DNA of 62,863 nt. Source: Rhizaria sp. SCN 62-66 (lineage: Eukaryota). The notes below the pieces were generated by a model. It was not told the origin of the DNA. It made no database searches and worked only from the letters and a program-made list of their open reading frames with translations. Below are positions 1 to 62,512 of this stretch, in pieces. Each line of letters starts with the position of its first letter. Position 1 is the first letter of the stretch. The stretch spans positions 1 to 62,863 of the forward strand of contig MEDY01000146.1 of NCBI GenBank assembly GCA_001724265.1, written 5' to 3'. A program made the position numbers and the translations under genes.

Positions 1-1
1 T

Positions 2-15091: not shown

Positions 15092-16725
15092 ATCGAACAT
15101 GACAACCACCACATTAAAGGTATCCATAGATTTATCCTTCTACATGCATCGTCGAGTGTGTTTGTTTGTGTAATTTCGAACAATAAGGAGTTTGTTGCCG
15201 AATGTAAATTGTTGCATGCTGCGCGGCATTACACATATATATCGCGTTATTCTGTTTTGGATGTTGTTTTCTATTTGTTTTATCAAAAAATAATAGTCAT
15301 TCGCTGACTGTTTTGAATTATTCTGGGTTCAATACTTATTCTTGATCGCCTCCTTTGTGGCCTAACTGTACATGAAGCTTGAAATCACTCAAGTGTTTGT
15401 TTGCGTTCCAACGAAGATTGTATTTGCTATGAACTCGTTTTTAATTTCTTATGTAAGAATCATCAATCGGCCTAAGCTGTGCCAGTGCGTATAAGTGCTA
15501 TTCGTGTTGACAAGATACGCTATTCTTGCACAACATAAACGGCTGGCGCACACCACACCACACCACACCACTCCACACGTCGCTGCTTTCATGCATTGCG
15601 GTATATTGTTTATTGTTTGTTCGTTTGTTTTTGTCTAAATGTTGTGTCGTCTGGCAGTATATACGTATTGCTCCTGCTTTCCTTCCATCATGCTGGTTTG
15701 TTGTTTGTTTGATTTTTCCCCCTTACAAGTTTGTTTATAATGACAGGTACCTTCGATCACTATGTGGAAATCGCTTCATTCTCAACGTAACTACGTGTAG
15801 GTATAAATGGTTTCTGAGTTCCATGGTATGCTGTTGCTGCATTTGATATGTTCCTGTAACCGGACGAATCCTTATTGAGCATCAAATGTTGCTTTCCGTC
15901 ATCTCGTAGACTGTATTTTCTATTGTTGTCTGTATATTTTTTCATGACATTTTCTTGTGTCCAAATTTTCTCAATGACTTTAAGTTTACGTTATTTAGTG
16001 AAAATTACAAATATTCTCTCCGCCTGTGCAGCCGCTGCACCACGTCAAGGTGAACTGAAAATACATTTTTGTACACCAATATGTGTAATCATCAAGCGAA
16101 GCGTAATATTCCTGAGGGTATATACGGATATATTACATACTTTTCACCCCGAACTGTCGGCTATTGGTGTGCTTCATGACACTGATGTGACGATCACATG
16201 GTCATAGGTTACGAACAAAAACAAGTCGTAACGCGGAACCAATCAAATCGAAGAGATATGATGTGAAGAGCTAAGGTATATGCAGCTAATACACATTGTT
16301 TACGTTTTAAAATAATCTGTCATATAAGAAAACACTGCTTAATTTTGTGTCGCCCGCTGGCAAAACGTCGGCAAAATTCGAAAGTCCTTGTTTTGAAATC
16401 CTCTTGTTGATGTCTGGTGGTGCGAGGCGAGGCTGATCACGACTGATAGTCGCTGACGTGACGTGACCAAACCAATGGGCGAGATATGGCGATTCCAGAG
16501 TCGGAATAATGGCCAACTTCTACGCGTCATTACAGAGATTCTGAATGATGTTAAGAGTCTAAACTAAACGGGATGTATTAATCATAAATTAGATTTTAAT
16601 TTCAACATGATAAACCTTGTCAACGAAGGGTCCGAAATCTTACCACCAACGCATCGCGCGACCCGACCACCCTCTCATCCGCTGCATCTTGTCATCTTTT
16701 TCCCCTTCATTGTCTTCCTGCTCAG

Positions 16726-19700
16726 ATGGACTTACCGCCCCGCGGACCCCCTCGGGACGGCGCGACTTCGGATCACCCCACCGCGACCGACACCTCCGAT
16801 CTCTCCTCTTTACTGCGCGTTGATAGCGCGCTCCATTTCTTCGGCTCTGCCCCTGCCCCTGACGTCCGCAACGCCGCCACAGACGCATCCGCGCCCGCCG
16901 CCGCTGCTGCAGCCGTCGCGGGCATGTCCCCAGCGCTCCGCCGCAAGGCCTCGACACAGGACTTGACCCGTCTCGGTGTGAACCTCGGCTTCGCCAATCT
17001 GCCCTCGGCCGCGTCAGTCTCAATCCCAGCCGCGCTCGCCTCGAGCGCTGCCAGCAGCAGCGCCAGCGCGGCCAACGGGGGTTCGATCTCCAACGCCGGC
17101 TTTGTCAATGCAGCGGGGTCCTCGCTGGGCGTGCCACCCGCGGCTTTCCCGCCGAGTGTCACTGGAGGTTTCCAGGTCATTCCCCCTTCTGCTTCTTTCT
17201 CCACCCCTGTCTTCAACAGCACCAGCAGCATGCTGCCCCCGACCGTCGTCGCCCCCTTTGGCAGCGCCGTGAAGCCCTCGCGCCCCACCCTTAGCGTGAG
17301 CACCTGCGCCGGTCCCGGCCTCGCTGGCGGGCTCGGCTCCCCTGTCTACGGCCCTACCGCCGCCGCCACAGACTCCGATCCTTACCAGCTGCAGTACCAA
17401 CAGATCCAGCAGCAACAACAGCAGCAGCTGCAGCAACAGCAGGCCGTCGCCAACGCAGCCATCGCGCTGGAGCGCAAGGCCCTCTCGCTGCGGCAACGCA
17501 TCACTCACGCTTTCCCCCAGGTCGCCCCGACGCTGCGCACCAACGTGTACGTAGCGGACCGCGTCGGCAACATCCTCACGCGCGACACCATCCTCAAGTC
17601 GGACCACGTGCCTCAGGCTGCGCTGGACCTAGTGGGCGCAGATGACGGCGACGGCGCCTCCGCCCCCGCGGCCGCCGCCGCCGCCGCTGCGGGCAAGAAT
17701 GCTGCGTCTAAGGGCAGCAAGAGCAGCAGCCGCCACGGCGACGACGACGACGACAACGACGACAACCCGCGCAAGGGCACCGACGTAGCTGACAACAGTA
17801 ACAGCAGCAGCGGCATTGGCAGCGGCACCGCCAGCGCGGGCGGCGTGGCCGGCAAAAGCAAGGGCGCCCGCAAGCTCGCTCTCAACACGAGCGCGGGCGT
17901 CACCGCCGCCGCCGCAGCCGTGGCCGCAGCCGCCAGCGCCAACATGCAGGAGGTCTGGGGCGCGCCCAACTTCCGCCAGCTACCCGGCTCAGCGATCGCG
18001 GCGACTGCGCAGCCCACGGCGGCGGGCGTGCGCGCCGTACTCAACATGATCCGCGTGCAGCAGCGCCGGCTCGCGCGGCAGAAGCGCCAGGAGGACGAGG
18101 CCGCCGCGGAGGCCGCCGCGGAGGCCGCCGAGCTCGCCCAGTCCGGCGCCAGCGCCGACGCCACCGCAGCGGGCGCGGGCGCGGGGTTGAGCCGCGGGAA
18201 CATACACAGCAGCAGCAGCGCGAGCATTCGCAGCACGCGCAGCGCCCGCGGCGGCGGCGGCGGCGGCGGGCGGCGCCTGCCGACGCGGCTGCGCGTGCAG
18301 TGGATCAACGTGCGCGAGGAGCCCGTGCTGTACATCGCGGACCGGCCGTTCGTGCTGCGCGAGCTGGAACACCCGCTGCGCAACCTGGCCGACTTCCAGG
18401 GCATCAACCCGGCGCGCCTCAACAAGGTCGAGGGCTCGCTGTGCGCCGACGTCATCGCTGAGGCGGCCGAGCGCGGCGGCAACGTCATGATTCACGACGA
18501 GGACGAGAAAGGCAACATCAAGCCCTGCTGGGCCGCCATCGGCGCCTTCGAGGAGGTCGGTTCCGGCTCCGACTCTGACCGCGACCCCGACGACGGCCCC
18601 CACGACGACGATGAGGATGGCGCGCGCTACGACGACCGCTCCGGACCCGGACACGTCACCACGCCGCACCGCGCCGGACTCAGCGCGCACGCGCGGCCGT
18701 TCGCGAACCTCTGGGGCAGCGGCGCGAACCTCGCCGCGCTCGCCGCCGCGGCGACCCCGGCCCGGCCTCCGCACCAAGGCCAGGGCCACCACGCGCAGCA
18801 CCTGCCCGCGAGCGTCTCCCGCGGCGCGAGCGCGAGCTCCAGCTTCGGCGGCCCCACACCGTCGCGCGTGCGCGGTGAGCGCTCGGTGTTGCCCGACGCG
18901 TCTGCGAGCCGCATCGCCAAGACGGGGCTCAAGCCGGTCGGCAAGCTGCAGGTGCAAACTGCGGGACAGATGTTCGAGACGCTCTCGCGCGAGGAAGGCT
19001 ACAACGTGTTCCTGACGCGCGTGCCGCTGACAGCGGACTCGGCGCCGCGCCCGCGCGACTTCGACCGGCTTGTGGCGACGTTCCTGCAGCCGTTCAAGAC
19101 CATGACAGCGGACGAGGAGGTGTTTTACGTGTTTAACTGCCAGATGGGCCGCGGACGCTCCACCACGGGCATGATCGTGCTCGTCCTGCTGCAGTCGTGC
19201 ATCATCGGCTTCCCCGAGAACGTGTGGCCGCACGACACGGCCATCGCGCCCTCGCTCGACGCCTTCCTGCCGCTGCACACGGCCGCCAACAGCGCTATCG
19301 CCACCGCTGCCGCGGCCGCTGCCGCGGCCACCGCGGCGGGCGCCGCGCCCGAGGTCGCTGCGGCCGCTGCGCGCGCGCACACGCTGGCCGGCGCGATGGC
19401 CGCGACGACGGCGCGCCGCAACAGCCTAAAGGGCGCCGGCGCGGCCGCCGCCGAGGCGGGCGCGATCTCCACCACTGGAACCGCCACCGGCGCGAGCGTG
19501 GGTGCAAGCCCGAGTGTGGTGAGCAGTAACGCCACGGGCATCAGCGCCGACGGCAGTGCGGTGGACGCCATTGCCGCGGCCTCGGCAATGGCCAACCCTG
19601 CGCTGCCGCTGCCGCCCTGGATGGTCCCCAAGCAGCAACAACACGGTGACGCCAGCGCTGGCGCGGACGCTAGCGGCGGCGACAAGGGCGGCGGCGGCAA

Positions 19701-25700: not shown

Positions 25701-26536
25701 TGAATGACGGCATCACGCGCGAGATCACGTACTGCCGCACGCCGATCACGGACGAGCAGGCGCCGATCCCCGAGATCGTGGACCAGATGATCGAGCACCT
25801 CCAGGCCGTAGGCGCCGCGGTGGACGCCGCTAAGGCCGCGGGCAACCCCAACGCGCGCATGCTCGTGGTGACCAACTGCCAGATGGGCCGCGGCCGGACG
25901 ACGACGGGCATGGTCGTCGCCTGTCTTTGGTTCCACGTGACGGGCCGCGTCAAGGTCAAGATCGACGAGCTGGAGGCGGCCGAGGCACCCGAGATGCTGG
26001 AGCTGAGGCAGGCCAAGGCCGCCGCGGCCGCTAACGGCACGCACCACCACGGCGTTGCCGTCGGCGACGCAGACGACGACGAGGATGACGACGACGACGA
26101 GGATGACGAGATGAGCCTGCACCGCGCCGCGCTGCTCAACGAGCGCGAGGAGGCCCGTGCGCGCCACAACGCCGCGCTCAAAAACGGCTGGTATAGCGTC
26201 GTCAAGGCCCTCACGCGTGTGCTCCCCGAAGGTGCGTTCATCAAGCACTTGACGGACCGCGTGATCGATCTGTGCGCCAAGATGCAGAACCTGCGCGAGG
26301 TGGTGTTCGATATGCAGCTGCAGCTCGAGACCGGGCTGCTGCGCGAGCATGCGCGCACCGTTGCCAAGGGCAAGAACTTCCTCATCAGGTACTTTTTCCT
26401 CATCTGCATCTGCGGCTATTTGGTCGAGTGCAAGCACGACGGGTACAAGACCAAGTTCTCGCAGTGGATGCGCGAGCGCCAGGAGATCGTCAACCTGCTC
26501 GAGGGCGTCACTTTCCCTCAGCCCTTCGCTAAGTAA
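16726..26536 (+). CDS. Paladin-like protein with three PTP-like phytase (inositol/phosphoinositide phosphatase-type) domains, about 3,103 aa
   Basis: Exons 16726-22056, 22216-24243, 24400-25500 and 25685-26536 join in frame. Three copies of W[IL]N[VL]REEP[VI].[YF]....PFVLR, ILKSD/APNFR motifs, and CX5R loops NCQMGRGR (~19135), NCHQ|GGRR (exon 1/2 junction) and NCQMGRGR (~25875). Ends TAA. Confidence 0.9.
22057..22215 (+). other. Spliceosomal intron (159 nt), paladin-like gene
   Basis: GTACGA...TCTAG, AT-rich; removal restores the CX5R loop CHQGGRR. Confidence 0.92.
24244..24399 (+). other. Spliceosomal intron (156 nt), paladin-like gene
   Basis: GTACGA...TATAG, AT-rich, phase 0, frame preserved. 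Confidence 0.88.
25501..25684 (+). other. Spliceosomal intron (184 nt), paladin-like gene
   Basis: GTACGT...TGCAG, AT-rich; joins to the frame encoding YCRTPITDEQAP. Confidence 0.9.
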
Positions 26537-26975
26537 AGCGTGAGTGTTCTACACTTGTTTGCATGCGCGGAGGAAAGGAAGTTCAAACTATGAAATGTAT
26601 ATGGATCAATTTGATTTAGTGGAGATGAGATATGATACCTGACTAACACTCTGAATGTGACCCAATATATGCCTTAAAGCTGTTTTTACAACAATAAAAG
26701 AAACGTACTTTTTATTTTTCAACGACCTCTTCGAAGTTGTATCATTGTGCTGAGTGATCCAAATGTTGATGTATTGAAACAGATACAATTTGGATATAGA
26801 TCGAAACAATGGCACTACGTAGTCCGTCATAAGAGCCTTGTTTCACTATTAAATAATGTCTTGAAAAAAAAATAAAAGTCTCACCGATGATAAAATAAAC
26901 AAGCAAGTTGTGCCACATAAAACATTGTGTGACAACGACCTCCCGAGGATAGACCGCGTTTGCCGTCTGCTTTGC

Positions 26976-29245: not shown

Positions 29246-29930
29246 CGGCAGAGAGAAGGGCAGCGACTGAGGCGCGCGGCAGAGTGTGAAGTGGCAGCAA
29301 GACAAGCTCTCAGCGTATGGTCCAAAGGCAGTGCGACCGCAAGGTGGAATAGAACGACTTCCGGGAAACCTATAAAAAAGCAAAAGGACTAAACAAAACA
29401 AATGCGCTATTAGCGGCTATTCGTGCGTTGTCGGCGTGCAGCGATGAATATATTGCGAGTTATGACATCGGCAAGTTGAACCCAGAGACCAGCATTTCGA
29501 GGGCCGCGGACACTATTTGCTCGGCCACCGTCAAGTTTCCGTCCGCTATCGCGAACCAACCACAACTTGTCTCGCCAGTAAAGCAAGTTTTCATCGACAT
29601 ACGCAAATGTTTTTGGGATGCCTTAACTGTTTAACGCACGCAGTGCTGATTTTACATATAGTTGTCTTATCACGCGCGATGTACTCCTGGGCATTTGACC
29701 ATTTCGTCGGTGCAGGGAGGAAGATTCGAGCCTCTCCTAGTCTCCTCTCGGGAGTCCTCCACCGCGTCCTGCCGCTCACCAGCTCACATCCGGCGATTTA
29801 TGTTTTGTTACGCATGCAGGCTCGCTCCTTCTGCGCGCCTTCCTCTCTTTGTGGCCCCTTTATCGGCGGCCTATTTCTTCTTCCGCCCCCTTGCAGCCCC
29901 TCCTGTCTCATCACAGAGTACCTCTTTTTG

Positions 29931-32590: not shown

Positions 32591-32622
<32 letters not shown>

Positions 32623-33282: not shown

Positions 33283-33317
<35 letters not shown>

Positions 33318-34230: not shown

Positions 34231-34265
<35 letters not shown>

Positions 34266-38300: not shown

Positions 38301-39085
38301 CCGCCGTTGCTGTTGTTGTGTCCTGAATATTAAAAGTTACATTCGCGAATTAATTGTTTTAATTAATCAATGATGTACCAGACTTTTGACTGGGGTTACA
38401 ACAACGGGGGTTACAACTAATTGTTGCGACTGGCGTTGCTGTTTGAAACTGTTGCTTGCTCAGTTTCTTTCTTTTCTAAGTCTTTACGTTTTAACAATCT
38501 CACCACCGCGCAAACACTCGCTTGTGTGCTTTGTGTCTGCGTGATCATTTCTCGTGGATGTGTGTGTGGTGTCTCCAACAGGTCTCCAATACATGTAATG
38601 TTTTGAGCTCAGGAACTTCTTCATCTGATGCATATCATCGCAAAATTAAAAACATGAAGAATGGTGTGTTTGTGATTATGTCGGTATACATTGTGAAACA
38701 AGTTAACATTACTTTTCGCAGAAATCCCTCCTATAAGTTGCTATCATCGTAAATGTGTAACTCTCGAGTCACCGACCATCGCTGATCGCGGTCACCAGTC
38801 TGCAGGCGAACCGCCTCATCGGTCAAGCCCAGGAACCAAATAAAACGAGGGACACGAACATCAAATTCAACATGATCGAACTATAATTTAAAGATTCCAT
38901 TCAATAATGTCGAAATTATTAAATATTTCACATATGTCTCGCCTGACGATCAAATACTCTCGCAATATCTGTTTTCTTAATTCGTCCTTGTAGGGTAACG
39001 GCTTTTGCCCATTTGCCTCCAACCAACCTCCCTGGCCACACATTCAACATCGGTCTCCTGTAACTGACACGCGCGTACAGTCCGC

Positions 39086-47440: not shown

Positions 47441-47650
47441 AGGCGTGGCCAAAGCGCAAGCAAGAACGAAAACATAATAACTTAAAGCAAATATCATTAG
47501 TTTAGTTTTCTCTCGTATAATTACGAGCTACCTTGTCATTTGTGTAATTTTGAATACAAATTCATTCTTTTTCTCTCAGCCTTAAATCGAAGCCTTGTGT
47601 TGAATTGAAAGTATCACTTTGTATTTGTTTATAGCGAAGTTCATACGTAT

Positions 47651-47678
47651 ACATTATAAAGTCTACATTATAAAGTCT
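47651..47678. repeat. Perfect 14-bp tandem duplication (ACATTATAAAGTCT x2)
   Basis: Read directly, in the spacer between convergent genes. Confidence 0.9.
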
Positions 47679-47893
47679 AACTGTGCGAATATATTGCGCG
47701 TCGTCGTTGCTGCTTCAACTCGCAGCAACAACAGCACGACGTACGTAGCTTACGATATTCATTGTTTGTTATTTTGAGTTTTTCCTTTGTAACCAATCAG
47801 GGGAATGACGAGCCCACGCAAACAGGCGCGCGCTCATCTTAGTCCTCTTTTGCTTTGCTCATAGTCGCCTGGCGTTCGATGCCGTTCTCGCAC

Positions 47894-48524
47894 TTACTGG
47901 TGGGTGGCGGAGCGGCGGGGCACGAGGATATCCTTGATCTTGTCCAGCGGCTGGCCCTTGATCAGCGACGCGATCTTGGCGCAGCCCAGGTGCAGCAGCC
48001 CAGGGATGTGAAGGTAGAGTGCGCCCATGGTGACGTCGTACAGCAGCTGGATGCTGCGCTCGTGGATGCCGTCCATGAAGACGGCGTCGTTGGCGTCGGG
48101 GCACACCTCCTGCAGCAGACGGCTGCGAAGCGGCTTCTCGACGTAGGGCGCCTCGGTGCCGTTGTGGCGGTTGACGTAGGACGTGATGGCGTCGAGCACC
48201 TCGCCGTCCAGGTCCACCTCGATGTCCACAGCGTTGGGGTCTGGAAGCGCAACACAAAACAAAAAGGGAGATCAAAAATGCAAATTAAAGTGTGTTTGAA
48301 CAGTGGTGAGTAAGTGAGGTGGGGATGGGGTTCGATGGGGAGGCATGCGTAAGTGGAAATATGGAAAGGATCTGTGGGCCTGAGGTGGGATGGTGAGGGG
48401 ACATACCTTGCTCAAGAGCAGAGACGACGAAGCCAGAGATGGAGGCAGCGCGGCGGGAGATGGTGTACGAGGCACCGTTACGCTTGGAAACAAGGCGGAT
48501 CGGCGGCTGGTTCTCCTTAGACAT
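47894..48524 (-). CDS. Skp1-family protein (BTB/POZ-like plus partial dimerisation region), 154 aa
   Basis: Exons 48524-48407 and 48240-47894. IRLVSK..ISRRAASISGFV, VEKPLRS, LYDVTMGALYLHIPGLLHLGCAKIASLIKG match the Skp1 pattern (AANYLxIxxLLxxxCxxVAxxIKG). Ends TAA. Confidence 0.88.
48241..48406 (-). other. Spliceosomal intron (166 nt), Skp1-like gene
   Basis: Minus-strand GTATGT...TCCAG, phase 1 (G|AC), joins the two Skp1 halves in frame. Confidence 0.88.
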
Positions 48525-48982
48525 GCAGGCGAGCGGTCTGAAGGAAAGAATGATTGGAAGGGAGGACGAAACGAGTAAGGGTGAGAAAAGCAAGCGAATT
48601 GTGGCACTAAAATAGCTTTCTACTGCAAAACAAATTTGAATTGGATAGACCAACTCATTAATGCAAATTCTACATCCGTCTCAGTTTAATTCAACGTCTG
48701 CAAGGGGTCGAATTCCTTGTCTCAAGTTGACTATCCTTTGATTCCCCCTCTAGAGCTGTTGTTACTCTCAGTCTCGGTCAGTCGCTCAATCAATCGTGTC
48801 TGACTGGACTAGCCACAAGACGTCCCCTTGTCGACAGATTTTCAAAGATTGGGCGAGATTGACTCACAAGTTAAAATTGTCACTTAAAGGGTAAAAAAAT
48901 AGGTTTATTAAACAGAAAAATTATGATAAGTTTTGTTAAATAAAGTTAAATTCACATTGGGCAAGGATATCACGGGAAAATG

Positions 48983-51013: not shown

Positions 51014-51248
51014 GTTTGCGGAGTAAAGACGCCTGTTGGCGCGGACGGGGTGACACGAGAGAAGGTTTTGTAGAGCTTGCTGTGGGGACTGGACTCTGCT
51101 TGTGGCTGTGGATGAGGTGGAAAGAGGCGAGACAGAAAATAAGCGATTATGACTTATAACAGTGTTTAGATTGAATTTCTAAATTAATTCATATAGATCT
51201 CTCAATTTTACACTTGTTTCTCTTTTTGAATTTTCAGTACACGGACGA

Positions 51249-54200
51249 ATGGACCAATTTGGACGGTCTCTTCGATTCTCGTCAGGCACTGCCACGGCAG
51301 CTGGCGCGCGAAACGGCGGACACAATCTTCCGTTCCCAAGCTCTTCCACAGTCTCAAACCCGCCAATGCACTTTACCACCGCCTCTGCGACGGTGCCTCC
51401 CAACAATTCGACGTCGTTATACGGCCCGTTTCGCGCGTCCAACACCGTGCCGGTCGCTTCCGCGTTTCCCCTCGCCACGGAGCGCGCGCCCCTCTCCCCG
51501 TCCTCCTCCTCCGCCCTCGCCTGCTCTGCCATAGCTCCCGCCCGCGGCGCCAGCCAGCATCGCGGCCTGTTTGCCACCCCCGCGGCCGTCACCATTGCCC
51601 CGCAGCACCCGTACCCCGTGCTGCCCGCGTACGCGCAGGTCTCTTCCCGCCCTTTGCAAGACAGCGCCACATCTGCCGCCTTCCCGTTCGCCGCCGCTGC
51701 GACCGACAGAGCGTCCCCGCACGGCCCTCACCCATACCAGCAGCAGTCCTGCGTTGTGGGGCTTGGCCAGAGAGGCACGGGCGCGCGCGCTGGCGCTGTT
51801 ATCGGCGCGTACGTGACGCCATACGACGTCGACGTGCCTCCCGTCTTTGCTCCCAGCAACACTGGCGGCCACGCGCGCGCTCTGAGCGATGACGCTGCCG
51901 CTGGCGCTGGTGCCGGCCACGTCGAGGCTAGCGGGAGTGTCGGCGTTGCTGGCGTTGGAGAGTTGACCACCGGTGCACTGTTCCAACCTCAAAGCAGCAA
52001 CTCTAGCAGCATAGGTCACAGCCACCGTCACGGACCGAGCTGCAGTCCCAGTCATAAGAGTGCTGCCAGCGCTGGCATCTTCCATGCCAGCCAGCAGCAG
52101 CAGCCGATGCTGATGCCGTCGCCGACCGAGGTCGAGAGTGAGGACTGTTACCTCATCCACAGCCCCAGCCGCGCAAGTGCGAGCCCCAAGACCCGCCGCA
52201 GCAGCAGCAACAGTAGCGCGGGCATGCGCGCGAGTGCGAGCGGTGCGACCACTGGCGCCGCCGCGACTGGCGCTGCCGCGAGTGACTACGACGAGGACGA
52301 AGGCAGGGACACGTTTTACCCCAACCCCGACCAGTCCGCCTTTGGGTCCCCCTTTTCACCCCTCAACAACAACAACACAATAATCCCCACTCACAGTAGA
52401 CTCAAGGGTTCTGGCACGAAGGCGGAGCAACAGAAGCAGCAACAGCAGCAGCAACAGCAGCAGAAGCAGCAGCAGCAGCAGCAGCAGCAGCAGTCTACTA
52501 CCCCCGCGTCTGTCTCCTCCACGACGAGTAGCAGTCCTGCCGAGCGGCCCCCGCAGCCGCCAATGTTCTGGTCCCCGCTGCCGGAGCCGCTGGCCTCTGC
52601 CCCGCGCCACCGGCCCCCGCTCACCCACTACCACCTGCGGCCCTCGCTCTCCGCGTCGGGCACGGACGTGCTCACTGTCATCACGACCCACTTCCCGCTG
52701 CTCACGGTCACGCTCGCGGTGCCGCGCACAGTCACGCACACGCGCGCCGTGCCAACCTTGGTCCCCGTCGCCGTCCCGGCCACCAAGTACGTCGCCGTGC
52801 CCTGCCGCAGCAACAGCACTGCGGCCAGCGCTAGTGCGGGTGCCGGTGCGCGCAGTGTCAACGGGGGCGCGGCGGTGGTCCGCGAAACGACTGTGGTGCC
52901 TACGGTCAACAGCCGGTGGGTGCAGCGGCTCGTGCCGGGCCGCCACACGGGCCGCTGGAAGGCCGCCACCGTGCAGGAGTTTTATGTTAAGCCGCGCAGT
53001 GTGACCACGCAGCGCGTCGTCAACACCAATTTCGGCAGCGATAGCCCGACTGCGAGCGGCCAGGCGACGACGGCGAGCGTTGAGGCGCGGTTCCACAGCA
53101 ACAATGGCTTCCGCATGGAGCCGGTGCAGGGGTGGGACTTGTCTGTGACCGAGGTGACGCAGCAGGTGACCGTGAGCGGCGTTGAGCTGGCCCAGGAGCA
53201 GCGTGTGCAGCCGCTCGTGGTGCAGGAGGTGCGCAAGGTGCGGCTGCCGGCGGGGAGCTTCGTCGTCCCGGAAGGGCTCGACTGGGAAGGCGCGCTGTGC
53301 TACGACGACAACAACAACAACAGCAACAATAACAATAGCCCGACTGGTAATCACCCTGATAATGCAGTCATTATCCCTGCTAGCCGCAGTCGGAGGAACA
53401 GTGTGACCCACGATTACTTCAGCAGCGAGACCGACAGCGTTAGTGCGAGTGCGAGCGCGAGCGGCCGTAGTGGCAGCGGCGGCGGCGGTGCTCAGCATAA
53501 CGCGGAGGAAGGCTGGTTTGATGTGTACCGTGACATTGAGAGGCAGCAGCAGCGTGAGCGCGAGCAGCATCAACGGTATATCGAACAACAACAACAACAG
53601 CAACAACAACAGCAACTTCTTCAGACTCAGCAACAGCAGCAGCTGGCTCGGGCTCTTCAGTCACAACCGTCGCCCGAGTCGCCCAATACTGCGGCCAGCG
53701 ACTTGACCCTGTCAGTGCATAGCTCCAACTCTAACAGCGCTGAGCGCGATGCTGCTCTTGCCACCCACCAGCATCAACAGCATCAACAGGCACATGAACA
53801 TCACATGCTGCTGCAGCAACAAGAGCGTGAGCTCCGGGAGCGCGAGCGTGAGCATCAGCAGCAACAGCAACAACAGCAACGTGAGCGTGACCGTGAGCGT
53901 GAGCACGGCTGGCAGCGCGTCTCCCGCGGCTCGCCAGCGTCGAAGTTAAGCCGCCCCGACTTTTCACTGATTGCACGGCCTGACGTCGATCTGACTGGAG
54001 ACAACGCTGGCGCTGCTGCCCATGCACACAGTCACTCTGCTTCTGCGCACAGTCACCCGGTGTCGATCTCAATATACACTGGCAATAGCACACATGTGAA
54101 CAATTCGAAGACGGTGTCTCACACCAGCTCGAATAGCCACAATGGCAACAAGGGCTGCTACAACAAGAGCAACAACGACGGCGGACGCGCTTCTCACGGT

Positions 54201-56891
54201 CACGGCCACGGTCACGGCCACGGCCACGGCCACGACCACGGTCACGGACGCGCTCACACTTGTAGTCACATTCGCAGTCGGAGCCGCAGTCGCCATGGCC
54301 GCAAGCACACGGGCCGTTATGAGTGTAGCTGTGATGGCAACGGCGAGCGCGAGGGCGACCGCAGCAGCAAGAGCGTGGCCACTTCTTGTCCCGACGGCTG
54401 CACTTGCGCTCAGTCTCCTGTTGCGGCTGCTGCTGCAGCAGCTGCGACCGCTCCTGTGACGGCGTCTGCGACTGCACCTGCTAACGCAACTGCGCGTACG
54501 TTTTCTGCTGTGCCCACAGTTGCGCCTGCAGCTGTGCCTGCGACACCAATGCGTGCGTTCCCCGCCCCAGTCTCTCTTCACACACCCGTCTCTGCCCCTG
54601 TTGCTGTCCCCGCTTCGTCTCTCGTCACTGCCCCGACCTCTGTCCCGGCCTCAGACTCTGCACCTGCATCTACCATTTCTGCTGCTGCTCCTGCTCCTCC
54701 TGCTGCTGCTGCTGCTGCCCCGACCAACGCCTCCTTGCAGCTCCCATGTGACGTCCGCATCGCCGGCTGCGGCTGCGCGTGCCACCCGCCGGACGCCGCG
54801 GCCGTAGCGTTGGCGACCGTTGACGTCGCCGCCGTGGACGCGGCGGCGACGCAGAGGGCCTTCGAGGACAAGTGGCTCAGCGACAAGCTGCTCTTTAGCA
54901 GTGGCAAAGCTGAGGCGGGGCTCCGTGAGAAGCCTGCATGTGCAAGTGATGTGAAGCCTGACGATGGTGGTAACGCCGACGCTGCTAGTGCCTCTGAGCG
55001 CAAGGACGACACCACCGCTGGTGTTGCTGCTGTTCACGACGATGAAGACGATGGCGATGACGATGTTCCTATTATGAAGACGGTGAAGGCAACGATCCGT
55101 CTTCCGACCAATCCCAACACGAAAACAAACGTTGACACTAACAGTAACAGCGTTTGCAGTGCAACTCGTGCGGCTGGTGTGAGCAGCAAACACTATGACA
55201 CAGAGCCGGCTCCGCTGCCTCTCAAGAATGCAACTGTTATCGCTACCCCAGCTCCTGCTGCTGCCTCTGTTGCTCAAGTTGCGACTGCGAATCCCGGCAC
55301 CAGTAAGACGAATGTTGCTTACAAAGTGGCCCATCCTGCGTATGCTTCGCATCTCGGCGCGAAGCACGGCCGTCTCAGCGCTCCTTACACGGCCGCCGCG
55401 CTGTCGAGCCTGACTGCGACGCACGTCGACTTAGGCCCTCCCCCGGCCGGTCTCCTCCCTGACACCGGCATGAACGTCAATACTCAGAAGGAGGACAACA
55501 CGGTTCATCGTCGTGCTCGTCGCATGAACATGGACAAGGTCAGCGACTGCGATTGTGGTGTCGGCTCAGGCCGTGGCGGTGGCCACCGAGGCTGCGGCTG
55601 TGGCCACGGTGGAATTGTGATCACCTCTCAGTTCACGACGACGACAGCATCAGCCCAGAGTGCTGCGCCTGAGGCACCGCCCGGTGCTGTTCCATCCCAG
55701 GTGACCTCGAACTCTGCTAGTACTGAGAACTCGAGCAGCTCCACCAACACTGTCGCAGCGACTGCAGCAGCCGCGTCAGAGGTAGCACTCAAGGCCCGCG
55801 CGTTCGTGCCCCCGCCGCCCCACGTGGCCACGGCCTTGGGCCTCATGGACCACGGGCTGCTCTACCACGGCGGCGGCCGCGGCTTGACTTCCGACGCAAC
55901 CACCGCAACCGCAGCGAGCGGCTTGACTTTGGACCAACTGCAACAGCAGCGCCAGCGTGAGATCACTGTGCGTCTGCCATCTGTCGCGGTGGACGCCGCG
56001 CTGTACCACGACGTGTCGCTGTCGCCCACGGTCACCTCGAGCACGATCCCGTCACTGCCGCCGAGCGCGCGGTCCCACTTACACGCTTACTTAGACGAGC
56101 AGGACCGCTTAGACGGGGAGCTGAACTAGTACCTAGAAGAGAGCGGGTACTTAGATGGCAGTAGGTACTTGGACAGCAACAACGCTGGCGGCAGTCACAG
56201 TGCACGGGTCTACTCTGCGAGCACTCCCAGCGGCAGCGCCAATGCTGGCGCGGGCGCTGCTGGCGCTGGCGCTGGCGCTGGTTCTGTGGTTACAGGCCCT
56301 GGCCTTACGCCAATCAAGCCGCCCACTGCGCCGTACTCGTACTACCACCCGTCAGTGCCTGCAACTGCAAGGACGAACACGAACACTGGCACCGCCGCTG
56401 CGGAGCCGGCGATTGCGAGCGGTGGTCCTTCAGTGCAGGAACTGCTGTATGAGTCCAATCTTGCGCTCAGCAAACGGATCGAGGAGCTGACTGAGAAGCT
56501 GAGCCAACATAAGACCCGTCAGGGCCAAACTGCAACTGCTCAGGCCGCCGCTCTGGCGACGGACGCAAGTTCGAGCGCCAGCGGCAGCAACATATCTGCG
56601 GCAAACGCCTTTCGCAGTGCTTCGGTGAGCAACAGCAGTGCGACTGTTTACTCTCGTTTGAGCAATAGTGCGAGCTCGCATTCCAACAACCACAGCGGTG
56701 ACGTCAATGCGACTGCGATGTCAGGGCCATCTTCATCTTCATCTTCACTCACTCAGCCGCAGTCGTCTTTTTTGAACCTTTCTTCAGAGCTGTCGTCGTC
56801 TCTCGCTGCGATGCTGAGCGACAACGCTGCGCTTGCACAGCAGGCCAATGACAGAGCTGCTGCGCTCCGTGCGGGACTGCAACGTAACTGA
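51249..56891 (+). CDS. Large low-complexity protein with a Val/Pro/Thr-rich beta segment, about 1,880 aa, with one in-frame TAG (56127-56129)
   Basis: ORFs 51249..56129 and 56169..56891 share a frame with open codons between them. A YL[DE] motif recurs on both sides of the TAG. C-terminal coiled coil VQELLYESNLALSKRIEELTEKL. Ends TGA, followed by an AT-rich spacer. Confidence 0.75.
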
Positions 56892-57332
56892 AGAGCCTTG
56901 CCACCACGTAAAGGTATGGCTTGCAACAATGACGTGAGCTCACAGAAACATATTTTCCATGTGTATGTCTATCCACATAATTGAATGAACTATTGAATCC
57001 AATGTTCCATCAAAACTTGCTCTATTACAATAGCTTGTTTTATTTCCATAAGCTTACATCAAATACAATGCTTATATCCTATCAGTAAAACAAACAACAA
57101 GTCCAACTACACTTCACAAACTCGTTTTCTTGATCGTGTCGCGAGATCGGGGAAAAAGTCAAATAAATATGGTTGTTTTTATTTCACACGAGACACGAGA
57201 CACTTTTCTGCCAAACTGAGTTCTTATGTGCATTCCACAACCAGTGGTTTAAACATCACACAAACCAAATAATACGTCAAAAACTTATATCAAAACTTTG
57301 TAACATTTCGTTTCTTCCCGAACCTGGCGTAT

Positions 57333-59087
57333 TTAGCAGTTGAGCACAAAACGCACGATCTTCTGGCACGTGCTCATCTTCCTGAGCCTGCGCTGCGTCG
57401 TTGCGTCGGCAAACACGTCCACATCGACCACGCGCGCCGCCACCGCGGCCTCGTCGTCGAAGGCGTACCCCACGGGCCCCGCGCCGGCCCGTCCCGCGCC
57501 AGCGGCCCCGCGCGCGCGCGCCCCATAGCCGCCTGCGGCGGCCGCGGCGGTGAGCGAGGACAGTGGCCCCACGGCGCCCAGGTCGGCCGCAAACGCGCCC
57601 GCGCCCGGGCAGTCGATGCCGCTGATGGAGCCATCGCCGCCGCCGAGGCCCGCGCCGCCGGTGCCCAGCTCGCCGCTGCGGGCGGCGAGGACAACCGCGG
57701 CGCCCGCGTGCGCGGAGGCGAGCGCCGTGGCCGCTCCGTGCGCCGAGACGCCCGTGTGCGCGGGGAGAAACGGCTGCACGCCGATGACGCGGCCGGCGAC
57801 AGTGAGGCGGCCGGACCGGGCCAGCGCGGCGCGCGCGGCCGCGGGGGAGGCGAAGGTCACCACGGCCCAGTTGGACATCGCGGCGGTCATCGTCGTCGCC
57901 GTGACAGGACCGAAAAACTCGAGCGCGGCGCGGACCTGCGGGAGCAGCGCCGAGTCGAAGCCGAACGCGGTGACGCGATGGCTATCATGCGAGGGCAACG
58001 CCGACCCGGAAGCCACGGCCCACGCCGGGACGGGCGTGGATTCGTACAGCGACACGGCGGTGGCAGCGGTCGACGAGTCGGCGACAGTTGTCAGCGCAGT
58101 GCTGCTCGAGCTTGCGGTTGCAGAGTCGCTGTTGTTGTAATAGTAGCTGTCTGCGCTTGCAGCGCTGCTGGGGCGCGCGGGCGTGTACGAGCTCGACAGG
58201 GTGCCGGTGAGCACCTCGGCGGCCAGAGGCTTGCTCCCCATTGCGCTCGCACTCGCGTCATGAGCGTTGGCAGAGCTAGCGTGAGTCGGGGGCGACATGG
58301 GGAAGAAGCCGTTACTGTCGGCGCTCTCTGCAGCAGCGGCATCAGCGGCGGCGGCGGCACGGGTGCGGGCGCGCGCGGCGCCCGCAGTGGCGGGGGCCTG
58401 CGCAGGGGAAGAAAAGTCGAACGCACGACGCGGTGTGGGAAACGTGTCATGCTCTTCCTCTTCTCCATGCCCAGCCGCACTAGAGTTCGCACTGTGACCG
58501 AATCGAGGGTTATTGGCGTTGGGATCGCAGCTCTGGAGGTACTCAGCACACGTCTCGCTGTCGTAGTCGTGCCAAACGGCAATAAACTGGTCCACGTCGC
58601 TGGGCTGCAGCTCCATCAGCCCGCTGGCCGAGCTTGCGGCGCGGCGGTTGAGCTCCTGCAGCAGATTCGTCCAAAAGGGCGTCGTGAAGCTGGGGCACGA
58701 AGACAAAGACGCGACCCAGCTGCCCCAGCGCGCCGCGCCGACCAACGCGGAAAGGCTGGAGACGCGCGCGGACTCGGCGCGGGACGGGTACCACGCGCCG
58801 ACCGCGGCGGCGTCGCCGGCGCCCGACGCCGAAGACGAGGACGACGCGGAGAGTGTGCTGGGGCTGTTGTGGTGCTGAGTGAGGCAGGCCACGACGAGGG
58901 GCACGAACGTGTCGTTCAGCGCATGTAAGTGTGACGCGGGCGCGGCGGGGGTCGCGGCAGCGGTGCGGGCGGTGAAGGCGGAGCTCGGGGCCGTGGTTGG
59001 AACCTTGAGGGCAGACGCGAAGCCACGCGCTGGGCCCGCAGCGGTCATCGGGGTGCGCAGGCGTGATGTGAAGGATCCATGCATCAT
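57333..59087 (-). CDS. NUP35: Nucleoporin Nup35/Nup53-like, about 584 aa
   Basis: MPPN-type RRM: VTAFGF...FGPV...SNWAVVTFASPAAARAALARSG...VIGVQP; terminal amphipathic helix STCQKIVRFVLNC. First ATG at 59087. Ends TAA. Confidence 0.78.
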   Translation of the reverse strand: MMHGSFTSRLRTPMTAAGPARGFASALKVPTTAPSSAFTARTAAATPAAPASHLHALNDTFVPLVVACLTQHHNSPSTLSASSSSSASGAGDAAAVGAWYPSRAESARVSSLSALVGAARWGSWVASLSSCPSFTTPFWTNLLQELNRRAASSASGLMELQPSDVDQFIAVWHDYDSETCAEYLQSCDPNANNPRFGHSANSSAAGHGEEEEHDTFPTPRRAFDFSSPAQAPATAGAARARTRAAAAADAAAAESADSNGFFPMSPPTHASSANAHDASASAMGSKPLAAEVLTGTLSSSYTPARPSSAASADSYYYNNSDSATASSSSTALTTVADSSTAATAVSLYESTPVPAWAVASGSALPSHDSHRVTAFGFDSALLPQVRAALEFFGPVTATTMTAAMSNWAVVTFASPAAARAALARSGRLTVAGRVIGVQPFLPAHTGVSAHGAATALASAHAGAAVVLAARSGELGTGGAGLGGGDGSISGIDCPGAGAFAADLGAVGPLSSLTAAAAAGGYGARARGAAGAGRAGAGPVGYAFDDEAAVAARVVDVDVFADATTQRRLRKMSTCQKIVRFVLNC

Positions 59088-59723
59088 TGTAAAGGGTTTA
59101 GGAAACAATACTCAGCTGGGAAATAAATTCACACACAATCTGCGCTAGGATACGGTTCGATTGTGTTTAGGGTTCGAAGGTTGACCTGTAGCGCTGTGGG
59201 AAGGGAAGATGGGGGGAGGCGCGAAAGGACAGATGAGTGAGGCAACTTTGGAGACGTATAGCACAAGCAAGGCAAGCACAGGTGCAAATATCACAGCAAA
59301 TCCAAAGAGTTTTGTGAGTTAAAACATTAGAAATACCGTCACAATTACATTTGACGACTGGAATACGTCACTCAAGGCAATACAGCGAAGGCGGTCTTCA
59401 ACGGACACACCGCAAACGACCGTGGGCATTGGTGGCTGGCTGACCGAAGCAGCGACAGGGCCGACGCGACGAAGAAGACGCTTAGAAAAGCTAGGTTTAT
59501 TCTATGAACTGAACGTTTTCTAGTTGTATGCAATGCGTTTTCTTGTCTAAGATGTGGCCCATACATGATGCCATTATTAGGCACGCTAAGTCGTTGTTTA
59601 TAGTACTCTCCCACTCACTGCCAACAATTGCATCTTGTCTCAATCCTAACGCACGCCACCTGCACTCCGCCGTCATCTCGTACATTCCCATTTGCATTTA
59701 CGCATGCTGCAGACCGTTGCCCG

Positions 59724-61244
59724 ATGTCGTCTGTGCGCACCGACTTCAGCGCGTACCCGCAGAACGTGGGCATCCTCGCCATGGACATCTTCTTCCCGAA
59801 GCAGTACATCGCCCAGGCCGACCTGGAGGCCCACGACGGCGTGTCGGCGGGCAAGTACGTCATCGGCCTTGGCCAGACGGAGCTGGCGTACTGCTCTCCG
59901 CGCCAGGACATCTACTCGCTTGCGCTCTCGGCTGTGTCGTCCTTCATGGCCAAGAACGCCGCATTGGCGACCTACGCCACCATCGGCCGCCTCGAGGTCG
60001 CCACCGAGACCATCATGGACCACTCCAAGTCGATCAAGACCGTTCTCATGTCGCTCTTCGAGGCTTCGGGCAACAGCGACGTCGAGGGCATCGACTGCAC
60101 CAACGCGTGCTACGGCGGCACCAACGCGCTTTTCAACTCGCTCGCCTGGGTCGAGTCCTCGGCCTGGGACGGACGTCTCGCGCTCGTCGTCTGCGGCGAC
60201 ATTGCCGAGTACGCTAAGGGCCCCGCGCGCCCCACCGGTGGCGCCGGCATTGTCGTCATGCTCGTTGGCCCCAACGCACCCCTTGTCGTCGAGCGCGGCG
60301 TCCGCGCGTCGCACTTTGCGCACGCCTACGACTTTTATAAGCCGCACATGCACTCGCCCTTCCCTGTCGTCGATGGCGCGCTGAGCCAAACGTGTTACCT
60401 CGACTCGCTGGACCGCTGCTACAAGGGCTACTGCGCCAAGTTTGCCAAGCAGAACGACGGCAAGCAGTTCCAGTTCGCCGACGCCTCTTACCTCGCTGCT
60501 CCCGCTGAGGCTGAGGCTGCCGCTGCCGAGGCTGAGTCTGCGGCTGCCAGTGCCAAGTACTTCGTGTTCCACGCGCCCTACAACAAGCTCGTCCAGAAGT
60601 CGTTCGCGCGCCTCTACTACACCGACTCGCTTCTGCGCGCCGCCAATGACAGCGGCGCCAGCAAGTCCGCTGCGAACGCCGCGATCGACGCGGTCTTCGC
60701 TCCCTTCGCGGGACTCGAGGCTGCTGCGTCGCTGACGAGCCGCGAGCTGGAGCAGGCCGCGGTGGGGCTATCCAAGGCGGGCTACAAGGCCCACGTTGCG
60801 CCAGGCACGCTCCTGCCGCAGTCGCTCGGCAACATGTACACCGCGTCGCTGTACGCGGGCATTCTGTCCTTGGTCTCCAACGCCGCTGCCCGCGCCGCTC
60901 TGCCTGGCCAGCGCGTCATGTGCTTCAGCTACGGCTCCGGGCTCGCGGCGTCGCTCTTCTCGCTCACCGTGCCCGACACGGCCGACGCCGCCGCCGGGCT
61001 GGCGCGCATCGCCGAGTCCGCCAACGTCGCGCAGCGCCTCGCGGCCGAGCGCACCAAGCGCACGCCCGCCGAGATGCACGAGACGCTGGGCGTGCGCGAG
61101 GCGCTGCACGGCAGCGACGAGGCCTACGTACCCGACACGCCCGTCGACGCCGAGACCTTTGCCGAGGGCGAGTACTACCTCACCGAGAGGGACGCCAAGG
61201 GCAAGCGGCAGTACAATCAGTTCTCTGCTACTGCTGCTCAGTAA
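59724..61244 (+). CDS. HMGCS: Hydroxymethylglutaryl-CoA synthase (eukaryotic type, mevalonate pathway), 506 aa
   Basis: IGRLEVATET..DHSKSIKT, catalytic NACYGGT, ARPTGGAG, FHAPYNKLVQKS, GNMYTASLY, FSYGSG. Ends TAA. Confidence 0.97.
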   Translation: MSSVRTDFSAYPQNVGILAMDIFFPKQYIAQADLEAHDGVSAGKYVIGLGQTELAYCSPRQDIYSLALSAVSSFMAKNAALATYATIGRLEVATETIMDHSKSIKTVLMSLFEASGNSDVEGIDCTNACYGGTNALFNSLAWVESSAWDGRLALVVCGDIAEYAKGPARPTGGAGIVVMLVGPNAPLVVERGVRASHFAHAYDFYKPHMHSPFPVVDGALSQTCYLDSLDRCYKGYCAKFAKQNDGKQFQFADASYLAAPAEAEAAAAEAESAAASAKYFVFHAPYNKLVQKSFARLYYTDSLLRAANDSGASKSAANAAIDAVFAPFAGLEAAASLTSRELEQAAVGLSKAGYKAHVAPGTLLPQSLGNMYTASLYAGILSLVSNAAARAALPGQRVMCFSYGSGLAASLFSLTVPDTADAAAGLARIAESANVAQRLAAERTKRTPAEMHETLGVREALHGSDEAYVPDTPVDAETFAEGEYYLTERDAKGKRQYNQFSATAAQ

Positions 61245-61577
61245 GTTCTCCAACGAGGCGTACAAGAAGTCGGTCATGGTGTTGCTAGGTGAGTTTTGGG
61301 AAAATAATGAATGTATTTTGAGTTTTTACAGTAGTATTTGTGTAACAAAAAATATTAACAATACATAAATAACGTTGTTCAGTCTGTTGTATATCTTAAA
61401 ACAAGGTTCTTTAGGTCTTAAAGAGCAGCTATTCAATGATATATCGACTTTTCATGATCTAAAAACGTTTTTTTGATCTAAATGATTGAATTACATGACA
61501 TACTTCAAAATGATGTCGACTAGAGATTATCATGGTTGTGCTCAACTTGAGACCAGACCCGCTGGGCTGGCTGACCA

Positions 61578-61646
61578 CATTCGCGAACACAGGGCGGTTT
61601 GAACCGCCTTGTTAAGACAAGCCGCGGATATTCGCGAAGATCCTTC
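61578..61646 (+). promoter_or_regulatory. Putative heat-shock elements upstream of HSP70
   Basis: TTCgcGAA inverted nGAAn pairs at 61580-61587 and 61631-61638, about 460-515 nt upstream of the HSP70 ATG. Confidence 0.45.
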
Positions 61647-62095
61647 TTCGCACTCAGTCCGAGGCCCTGGAATCAGGAACTCTTAAGGACCTTAAATACG
61701 CAACGCATGAGTGTTTGAAAGTGCTGATGGTTGCGAAGATAAATTTAATGTTGATACTATTTGTGGTTTATTTCCTTGATGCAAAACCGCGAAGATCTAT
61801 GCCGAGATGTGGGTTGCAAAGGTGTAGCCACGTCAGCGTCCATGCAACCCAAGCTCCGGATGGTACTACCTATTGCGCGATCATGATGATCCCGTGGGCG
61901 TTCTTCTTGGTTATACTGCTTATGATAGAGCCGCATATGTGCTGTATACGCTAGATCTTCCCGATATCTTTATGTGCGTGTTTATGCTGTGCTTGACATC
62001 TTTTTCATGTCGGGCCTCCCCAGACTGTCCGATGCTCACTTCCTTTGTCTCCGTTGTTCGCCTCTTTCTTTGGCTTTGTTTGTTGCTTTGTGTAG

Positions 62096-62512
62096 ATGTC
62101 CACTACTGGTGTCTCCGTCGGTATCGACCTCGGTACCACGTACTCGTGCGTCGGCGTGATGCGCAACAACCGCGTTGAAATCATCGCCAACGACCAGGGT
62201 AACCGCACCACCCCTTCCTACGTCGCCTTCACTGAGACTGAGCGTCTCGTTGGTGAGGCTGCCAAGAACCAGGCTGCCATGAACCCTAAGAACACTATCT
62301 TCGATGCTAAGCGCATGATCGGCCGTGAGTTCGACTCCAAGGAGATCCAGAGCGACATGAAGCTCTGGCCCTTCAAGGTCGTTCGCGATGGCAAGAAGCC
62401 CGCCGTCGAGGTTGAGTTTAAGGGCCAGACCCAGGTCTTCAAGCCCGAGGAGATCTCCGCCATGATCCTCACCAAGATGAAGGGTGTTGCCGAGGAGTTC
62501 CTTGGCGAGCCC

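Follow-up and report, generated by a model that had tools for sequence, protein, structure and literature searches.

How the 5' ends of mRNAs are formed was the question raised by a stretch of DNA in which ten start codons each follow a sequence resembling a 3' splice site. The analysis covered the whole stretch of 62,863 bases, referred to here as the window, with its ten genes for which an acceptor had been claimed, one of them (the 39086 gene) with an alternative site. Trans-splicing of a spliced leader (SL) has a patchy distribution among eukaryotes, and the number of its origins is debated. Each new lineage with the process bears on that count, which Roy infers to be >10 in the portion of the work used here (PMC5619915).

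Data and Site Scoring

Junction data were taken from contigs of public runs. X1 and X2 are RNA-derived runs of the same wastewater sample (S1); they are annotated "RNA? (probably DNA)," and their cDNA nature rests on a spliced contig of the Skp1-like gene. X8 consists of DNA contigs, and X3 is derived from polyA-RNA. Site strength was expressed as the pyrimidine fraction (Y) in the 30 nt that precede the AG together with the length of the AG-free run. For the comparison with chance, ~9.9 kb of non-coding sequence was marked from the list of open reading frames and used on both strands. The test windows were the 120 nt lying sense-upstream of each of the ten ATGs and made up 6.1% of this strand-space.

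Acceptor-like Sites before the Ten Start Codons

A preliminary description of this DNA had assigned an acceptor to each gene. All 11 AGs named there (ten genes plus the alternative of the 39086 gene) proved to be part of a YAG at their coordinates, nine as CAG and two as TAG, and the spacers from AG to ATG agreed with those reported (0, 0, 5 (or 92), 11, 11, 13, 14, 21, 28, and 92 nt). The tract at 38993, noted from the outset as the stronger alternative for the 39086 gene, indeed surpassed the site at 39080 (Y of.70 vs.57). Together with this tract, better sites were present near three of the original choices, the other two being 59194 for Nup35 and 29896 for the 29931 gene, and the two candidate CAGs of the 51013 gene were of about equal quality. 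The positions and scores are collected in Table 1. Pfam confirmed the gene labels Paladin (PTP-like phytase, four matches), Nup35, HMGS, and HSP70. For the labels RCC1 and Skp1, Pfam matches exist, but only below the curated cut-offs.

The Skp1-like gene contains a cis intron that served as a reference. Its joint (48240/48407) is present in contigs of both X1 and X2, whereas X8 retains the intron. The predicted upstream sites resemble the verified acceptor of this intron in that their AG stands behind a long tract free of AG and rich in pyrimidines.

Table 1. Acceptor-like sites and the reference cis intron in the window
Feature	Position	Strand	Element	Y	AG-free run	Status
Paladin acceptor-like site	16684..16725	+	CAG adjoining ATG 16726	.87	95	predicted
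RCC1-like acceptor-like site	29267..29308	-	21 nt to ATG 29245	.70	38	predicted
g29931 acceptor-like sites	29866..29916	+	two CAGs, ends 29896 (stronger) and 29916 (original choice)	.77 (29896);.77 (29916)	75 (29896); 18 (29916)	predicted
g39086 acceptor-like sites	38952..39080	+	TAG ending 38993 (stronger); CAG ending 39080 (weak)	.70 (38993);.57 (39080)	98 (38993); 85 (39080)	predicted
Skp1-like cis intron	48241..48406	-	GT..AG, 166 nt	.80	129	RNA-verified
Skp1-like acceptor	48538..48579	-	tract + CAG, 13 nt to ATG 48524	.87	67	RNA-backed
g51013 acceptor-like sites	51033..51147	-	two candidate CAGs, ends 51106 (original choice, 92 nt to ATG) and 51033 (19 nt to ATG)	.83 (51106);.73 (51033)	45 (51106); 41 (51033)	predicted
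g51249 acceptor-like site	51196..51237	+	11 nt to ATG	.80	39	predicted
Nup35 acceptor-like sites	59116..59235	-	CAG ending 59116 (original choice, weak); CAG ending 59194 (strong)	.57 (59116);.87 (59194)	22 (59116); 50 (59194)	predicted
HMGS acceptor	59671..59712	+	tract + CAG, 11 nt to ATG 59724	.67	107	RNA-backed
HSP70 acceptor	62054..62095	+	tract + TAG adjoining ATG 62096	.77	70	RNA-backed

Enrichment of Strong Sites

The sites might owe their existence to base composition, C/T-rich 5' flanks containing YAGs as a matter of course, with contigs ending there by accident. Plain YAG was indeed present at the level expected by chance: 29 of 464 occurrences fell within the 120-nt windows before the ten ATGs, where 28.1 were expected, so a mere YAG upstream of an ATG carries no meaning. 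When a Y of at least 0.67 and an AG-free run of at least 35 were required, however, 11 of the 15 non-coding sites were located in the 6.1% of the space taken up by these windows (binomial P = 4e-11, an optimistic value given that the thresholds were set after the sites had been viewed). These 11 sites are distributed over nine of the ten genes, and HMGS lies just under the cut (0.667). Strong sites also occur within GC-rich coding sequence and bring the totals for the whole window to 52 on the plus strand and 23 on the minus strand, which favors composition as the explanation. The pyrimidine bias of the sense strand before the ATGs could also be a feature of promoters or 5' UTRs.

RNA Junctions at Three Genes

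Contigs from the two RNA-derived runs extend to the 5' end in three of the ten genes, namely the Skp1-like gene, HMGS, and HSP70. In all three the alignment breaks within the predicted AG, at its A (48539, 59711, and 62094, respectively). At the Skp1-like gene, the spliced contigs of the two runs stop at this base with 23 and 4 non-genomic letters, and at HMGS the contigs of both runs begin there with 4 and 6 such letters. The HSP70 contig of X2 aligns from 62094 onward and is preceded by 20 letters, made up of 14 adapter letters and GTTTTA. X8 DNA contigs are colinear through all three sites (48185-49000, 58822-60043, and 60674-62146), so that only RNA shows the break. The depth of X1 and X2 was near nil upstream of the sites, with 0.4 and 0 in the intergenic bin 58950-59615 compared with 10.8 and 6.2 in the one that follows. 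For chance and composition to account for the junctions, all three contig ends would have to hit precisely the base predicted, and this in both runs and with non-genomic letters beyond; together with the clustering of the strong sites, this makes such an account most improbable.

The preliminary description had proposed trans-splicing for all ten genes and had set against it 5' ends that run colinear through the AGs or are joined in cis to sequence upstream. Neither was found at the three genes in the contigs and the 15 joints listed, and their contig junctions support the proposal. The 51013 gene runs counter to it: an X3 polyA contig (50808-51153) passes through both candidate sites and extends 45 nt beyond the one claimed at 51106. 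Trans-splicing of the full set of ten is an extrapolation from three. The Skp1-like gene is almost uncovered in X3, with a bin depth of 0.22 that is uninformative about its 5' end.

Non-genomic Letters and Their Source

The letters themselves were read for HSP70 and one HSP70-like transcript only; for the Skp1-like gene and HMGS, the data consist of the number of letters. At HSP70, GTTTTA plus AG yields an end of the form ..GTTTTAAG, and thus at most eight letters of a leader are seen. The HSP70-like transcript, from X1, carries 24 non-genomic letters before 62099. They start with TTTAAG, next to which come a UTR of 12 nt unlike that of HSP70 and the ATG, and TTTAAG thus heads two different sequences. 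The two could be paralogues that have an upstream exon in common. The 24 letters also include a ..CTATCAG of their own right before the ATG, and the transcript could represent a paralogue, either unspliced or as genomic sequence, whose start with TTTAAG is due to chance.

On the plus strand, GTTTTAAG is absent from all 62,863 bases, which makes cis-splicing very unlikely as the origin of the HSP70 letters. TTTAAG does not occur on this strand between 37315 and 62417; its nearest occurrence upstream of HSP70 is the one at 37315, which leaves 24.7 kb free. TTTTAAGGT is absent from both strands of the window. A leader that has no cis source upstream is accordingly a statement about HSP70, whose letters were read.

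These observations bear on a second alternative, in which every gene carries a separate intron in its 5' UTR, removed by cis-splicing, and a very short non-coding first exon is joined before the ATG. No difference is seen between these acceptors and those used in cis, and both transcripts headed by TTTAAG are HSP70-like, so that a first exon may have been inherited by duplication. Against this, a joint to an upstream exon at the Skp1-like gene, HMGS, or HSP70 was absent among the 15 joints listed (48 further exist). The contigs stop or meet adapter after 4-6 letters, which implies tiny first exons, and HSP70 would need an intron of >62 kb reaching across many genes, compared with the 166 nt of the verified intron. 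Moreover, the outward-facing acceptors of the divergent pair 51013/51249 are only ~130 nt apart. We regard gene-by-gene introns of this kind as distinctly improbable.

A gene for an SL RNA (leader + GT + Sm site) was not found within the 62.9-kb window, which also contains no Rfam family at gathering score and no tRNA. Two minus-strand candidates were considered and rejected, both occurring at chance frequency. After GTTTTAAG at 61402 comes AT instead of GT, and TTTAAG|GT at 61696 has A rather than T at -7.

HMGS Relatives in Metagenomes

In a metagenome scan with HMGS, five of 48 pattern matches encode relatives (L001-L005), the last three of which are distant and were left out of the comparison. 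L001 is colinear DNA of the same organism without the leader. L002 is DNA of a relative with an HMGS that is 72% identical; it has kept the pyrimidine-rich tract and the CAG 11 nt before the ATG, whereas the remaining upstream sequence has diverged. The scan recovered no mRNA contig with a leader.

This comparison also bears on the possibility that the YAG marks the transcription start, as a Y-A initiator that closes a core promoter rich in pyrimidines, with the extra letters arising as artefacts of library preparation or assembly. RNA cover starts at an A after C or T in all three genes, and the sense strand upstream is rich in pyrimidines, both as expected of an initiator. In addition, the HSP70 contig of X2 has adapter at a distance of only 6 letters from the site, as may the X1 contig of the Skp1-like gene, so the cDNAs end very close to it; true RNA starts cannot be defined from contigs, as distinct from reads. 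However, an initiator calls for no extra sequence, and at HSP70 the templated-looking GTTTTA stands between adapter and genomic A. TTTAAG heads a second transcript as well, and both runs show extra letters at the Skp1-like gene and HMGS. The sites further possess a long AG-free tract like that of the verified cis acceptor. Such a tract is a property of 3' splice sites that initiators are not known to require. Finally, L002 has preserved the position of the CAG and not the sequence around it. On this evidence we consider transcription initiation at the YAG unlikely.

Proposed Mechanism

Taken as a whole, the evidence makes it likely that the organism matures its mRNAs by SL trans-splicing. The process itself is known, and the organism is likely a new member of those using it. 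Transcription of each gene would start upstream, for example within the short intergenic regions between divergent genes. An ordinary spliceosome reaction would follow, with recognition of an ordinary 3' splice site 0-30 nt (sometimes ~100 nt) before the start codon, composed of a long AG-free, pyrimidine-rich tract and a YAG. A short and presumably capped leader from a separate SL RNA would be joined at this site, and the upstream "outron" would be discarded. The leader would end in ..GUUUUAAG. For HSP70 and Paladin, where the AG adjoins the ATG, it would constitute the whole 5' UTR and provide an A at -3.

We infer that the letters read belong to one common leader carried by all genes, that a gene for the SL RNA exists, and that the predicted sites are used at the other seven genes. 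A leader length of 18-30 nt is our guess, made because the distance from junction to adapter is 6-8 nt and further DNA past that point is needed by the enzyme.

If the organism does trans-splice, gene models here and in its wastewater relatives should set mRNA 5' ends at these AGs, and the search for promoters should be directed upstream of the outrons and not beside the ATG. The leader would also be a tag with which mRNAs of this organism could be pulled from mixed metatranscriptomes. The acceptor architecture, read from raw DNA alone, foretold the RNA 5' junctions to the base in all three testable genes.

Comparison with Known SL Systems

The comparisons below draw on portions of the cited papers. 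In Guillardia theta the acceptor is C/TAG after a polypyrimidine tract, the spacers peak at 0 nt with 36.6% at ≤10 nt, 20 SL RNA genes are given, and the portion used describes a system with no operons; the cryptomonad leader (G. theta, Hanusia phi) is CTCGGCGGCTGGTCAAG, has 17 nt, and ends in AAG (PMC5619915). Our sites share with this account the C/TAG after a polypyrimidine tract, the presence of 0-nt spacers, the lack of operon structure, and the AAG end, but the leader end GTTTTAAG is unlike CTCGGCGGCTGGTCAAG (PMC5619915). Guillardia is not among the named relatives of HSP70 or HMGS in the matches listed (best 120 each).

The leader of Paulinella, a member of the Rhizaria, has the conserved part TGGATAATCCGGCTTTTCTG, ends in CTG, and is not contained in the genomic 5' flank; transcription of the calmodulin gene starts ~136-151 nt before the ATG and leaves a short outron (excerpts of PMC6053224). 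As in this free-living amoeboid protist, an AG and a pyrimidine-rich region mark the junction, and the leader is missing from the 5' flank. In contrast to the same excerpts (PMC6053224), the leader end is AAG and not CTG, and the window is compact whereas the Paulinella genome is large and repetitive. "Amoebozoa" are given as a lineage with SL trans-splicing in part of another paper (PMC7346339, citing its reference 4), which, as a guess, we take to mean the Paulinella work.

In eustigmatophyte algae, whose SL trans-splicing came to light late, an AG acceptor is located no more than 100 bp from 48-82% of annotated genes, the leaders are 40-57 nt long, A/C-rich, and end in AACAG, and operons are predicted, according to the sections used (PMC8570151). 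Unlike those algae with their predicted operons (PMC8570151), the window changes gene orientation often, and neighbors on the same strand are ~445-850 nt apart. Leaders of dinoflagellates and Perkinsozoa have 21-28 nt and end in GGCTCAAG, and assembled transcripts of Perkinsozoa mostly keep only the 3' part, as stated in the portion consulted (PMC9399869). Both the AAG end and the retention of only the 3' part of the leader on assembled transcripts are matched here, whereas GTTTTAAG differs from GGCTCAAG (PMC9399869). Named alveolates are absent among the HSP70 and HMGS matches listed. None of the leaders compared, from Paulinella, cryptomonads, eustigmatophytes, and dinozoans as given in the portions cited, has the end seen here. 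A literature search on spliced leaders found no leader with TTTTAAG or UUUUAAG and returned off-topic papers on C. elegans genes; a search combining spliced leader with activated sludge found nothing relevant.

Lineage of the Organism

Tentatively, the organism may belong to a lineage known only from environmental sequence, in which an SL is undescribed. It could then represent a further independent origin, in which nearly every gene is trans-spliced and the leader forms the entire 5' UTR, including the A at -3, in some genes; we hold this combination to be possible rather than probable. The HSP70 and HMGS comparisons, together with the leader end described above, support an environmental lineage only indirectly. 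Neither protein has a close named relative among the matches listed. HSP70 is, among these, ~74-78% identical to proteins of named Dictyostelium, fungi, and animals and ~66-74% identical to those of named plants. A quick tree was computed from residues 1-275 of 97 listed matches (600-720 aa), the other 23 of the 120 being fused or short rows that were dropped. There the HSP70 query nests, through nine successive nodes, exclusively among sequences without an organism name. The homologue search with Paladin returned the protein itself and one weak match. For HMGS, the best named matches among those listed are ~50% identical.

Transcript 5' ends

The region was present in part in eight of the nine public sequencing runs listed, with wastewater, activated sludge or biofilm as sources. 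Four runs (X1, X2, X3 and X8) were aligned to positions 42300-62250. X1 and X2 represent one sample, and junction evidence was taken from contigs, not from reads. Both show clean excision of the Skp1-like intron (joint 48240/48407; GT..AG, minus strand) and therefore contain cDNA-derived contigs. X8 was unspliced at this intron and crossed intergenic regions, and thus behaves as DNA. The 5' ends of three genes were reached by X1 or X2 contigs, and in each case the alignment ended on the A of the acceptor that had been predicted.

Alignment ends of RNA contigs at gene 5' ends (loose letters, unaligned contig end)
Gene	Alignment end	Strand	Loose letters, X1	Loose letters, X2
Skp1-like	48539	-	23	4
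HMGS	59711	+	4	6
HSP70	62094	+		20 (14 adapter, then GTTTTA)

X8 contigs were colinear with the window across all three junctions, and X1 and X2 depth was close to zero upstream of them. In the preliminary description, an acceptor-like YAG before ten start codons was read as a sign of spliced leader (SL) trans-splicing, a reading that colinear 5' ends or a cis-spliced upstream exon would contradict. At the three testable genes the RNA contigs were not colinear and, among the joints listed, showed no upstream exon, in agreement with the SL interpretation. The genes probably mature by SL trans-splicing. Its extension to all ten is less certain, as the 5' RNA contigs cover three genes and the other seven sites are predicted.

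At g51013, the gene starting at 51013, a polyA-RNA contig of X3 from another study (50808-51153) ran across both candidate sites; possible explanations are precursor RNA, carried-over DNA and trans-splicing of only part of this gene's transcripts. A G>A difference at 51014 was common to X3 and X8, both from one study. Compared with the window, X8 DNA contigs also lacked 11 nt at 61540 and had clustered substitutions in HMGS at 60044-60176, a sign that strains or alleles vary in the environment.

Acceptor context

All 11 AGs named in the preliminary description were YAG at their coordinates, and the spacers to the ATG were as described. Site counts within 120 nt upstream of the ten ATGs, on the sense strand, were compared with a background of ~9.9 kb marked non-coding. 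Plain YAG was not enriched (29 of 464 observed, 28.1 expected) and is by itself without information; the distinctive feature is its context, a pyrimidine-rich, AG-free stretch of 40-107 nt with YAG at its end. Strong sites were defined by a pyrimidine fraction (Y) of at least 0.67 over the 30 nt before the AG and an AG-free run of at least 35, thresholds picked after the sites had been seen. The sense-upstream windows account for 6.1% of the space and, with these post hoc thresholds, contained 11 of the 15 non-coding strong sites (binomial 4e-11). These 11 sites serve nine of the ten genes, HMGS being excluded by rounding only (0.667). The one RNA-verified cis intron (48241-48406, minus strand) has the same acceptor type, with Y at.80 and 129 nt free of AG. 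Defined as tract, AG-free zone and YAG, the original observation is real. The picks at 39080, 59116 and 29916 are genuine YAGs, yet weaker than their neighbors at 38993, 59194 and 29896. At g51013, 51106 has an equally plausible alternative in a second site at 51033.

The short 5' UTRs past the acceptor of HMGS (59713-59723, plus strand) and the Skp1-like gene (48537-48525, minus strand) both start with ACCG and are similar in composition, which may be chance or a favored post-junction context.

Leader sequence and rival explanations

The loose letters were available as sequence for two HSP70-like transcripts, and as a number for the Skp1-like gene and HMGS. At HSP70 the 3' end of the leader reads ..GTTTTAAG; because the AG was always part of the alignment, the leader must itself end in AG. 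A further X1 contig matched the HSP70 coding start (loose end at 62099), carried a different 12-nt UTR that is absent from the window, and began with TTTAAG. This second transcript, which apparently has one additional codon past the ATG, is a paralogue or close relative from the same sample. It has its own CAG right before the ATG and, against the SL reading, could be unspliced paralogue sequence. With adapters found 6-8 letters beyond the junction, the cDNA would have to reach some way further, which would be compatible with a leader of ordinary length. Published assemblies mostly retain the 3' part of the leader only (PMC9399869). A full-text literature search for the leader end with "spliced leader" returned nothing relevant.

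A cis-spliced 5' UTR intron in each gene would also place an acceptor before the ATG. GTTTTAAG was absent from the plus strand of the window, and the nearest plus-strand TTTAAG upstream of HSP70 was 24.7 kb off, past several genes on both strands. Among the joints listed (15 of 63), none connected the Skp1-like gene, HMGS or HSP70 to an exon further upstream. The verified intron is 166 nt long, and in the divergent pair 51013/51249 the acceptors face outward and lie only ~130 nt apart. Together, these results make cis introns very unlikely. If transcription began at the A of a Y-A initiator, the abrupt onset of RNA cover would be explained, but the templated-looking letters that separate the adapter from the genome would not, nor would the splice-site-like AG-free tract; this reading is improbable.

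No SL RNA gene was found within the window. A look-alike at 61402 (minus strand) failed on the donor (AT, not GT), and TTTAAG|GT at 61696 (minus strand) differed from the RNA (A, not T, at -7). Beside the latter, several short hairpins with perfect pairing and multiple copies of a TCGCGAA motif occur in the HMGS-HSP70 spacer (61560-61700, minus strand); this region was judged not to be an SL RNA gene.

Relatives and known SL systems

A metagenome scan with HMGS yielded contigs that include L001 and L002. L001 is DNA of the same organism and colinear; L002 belongs to a relative (72% identical protein), whose upstream region is scarcely alignable to the window but keeps a pyrimidine-rich tract and a CAG 11 nt before the ATG. 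Among the matches listed, the best named ones were ~50% identical for HMGS and 77-78% for HSP70 (Dictyostelium, chytrids, Mucorales). In a quick tree of 97 HSP70 hits among the matches listed, the query nested solely among unnamed environmental sequences.

SL trans-splicing is established in Euglenozoa, several animal phyla, dinoflagellates and Perkinsozoa, Paulinella, cryptomonads and eustigmatophytes (PMC5619915, PMC6053224, PMC7346339, PMC8570151, PMC9399869). The cryptomonad system is nearest in behavior: its leader is short and ends in AAG, its spacers are most often 0 nt, a polypyrimidine tract precedes its C/TAG acceptor, and it has no operons (PMC5619915). The leader end itself was unlike any Paulinella, cryptomonad, eustigmatophyte or dinoflagellate/Perkinsozoa leader compared from these papers.

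Gene content

The window is eukaryotic, with coding regions of 60-74% G+C separated by short A+T-richer spacers and with ~50% G+C over the first 16 kb. The gene list of the preliminary description matched the long ORFs. Pfam supported its labels Paladin (four PTP-like phytase domains), Nup35, HMG-CoA synthase and HSP70, whereas "RCC1" and "Skp1" were found only below curated cut-offs. The Skp1-like product (47895-48539, minus strand) matched the first 27 positions of the Skp1 dimerisation domain only (E 5.7e-4, below the gathering score) and stops shortly past this partial match; it is thus, at most, a diverged Skp1-like protein with a short C-terminus.

Positions 1-16700 hold three long plus-strand ORFs: 1146-6158, 6372-13154, a giant cysteine-rich surface-type protein with Sushi, IPT/TIG, ephrin-receptor-like and ELAPOR-like domains, and 13298-15091, with a weak TRP-like channel match. 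No acceptor-like flank was present at their ATGs, so a single larger gene may include all three as exons. A long A+T-rich, ORF-free stretch (35342-39085; 42.5% G+C at 36-38 kb) contains strong plus-strand acceptor-like sites at 36183, 36327 and 37251, distant from called ATGs. Their source could be small genes or exons missing from the annotation; alternatively, they could lie in a long outron, the segment discarded on SL addition, of the gene starting at 39086.
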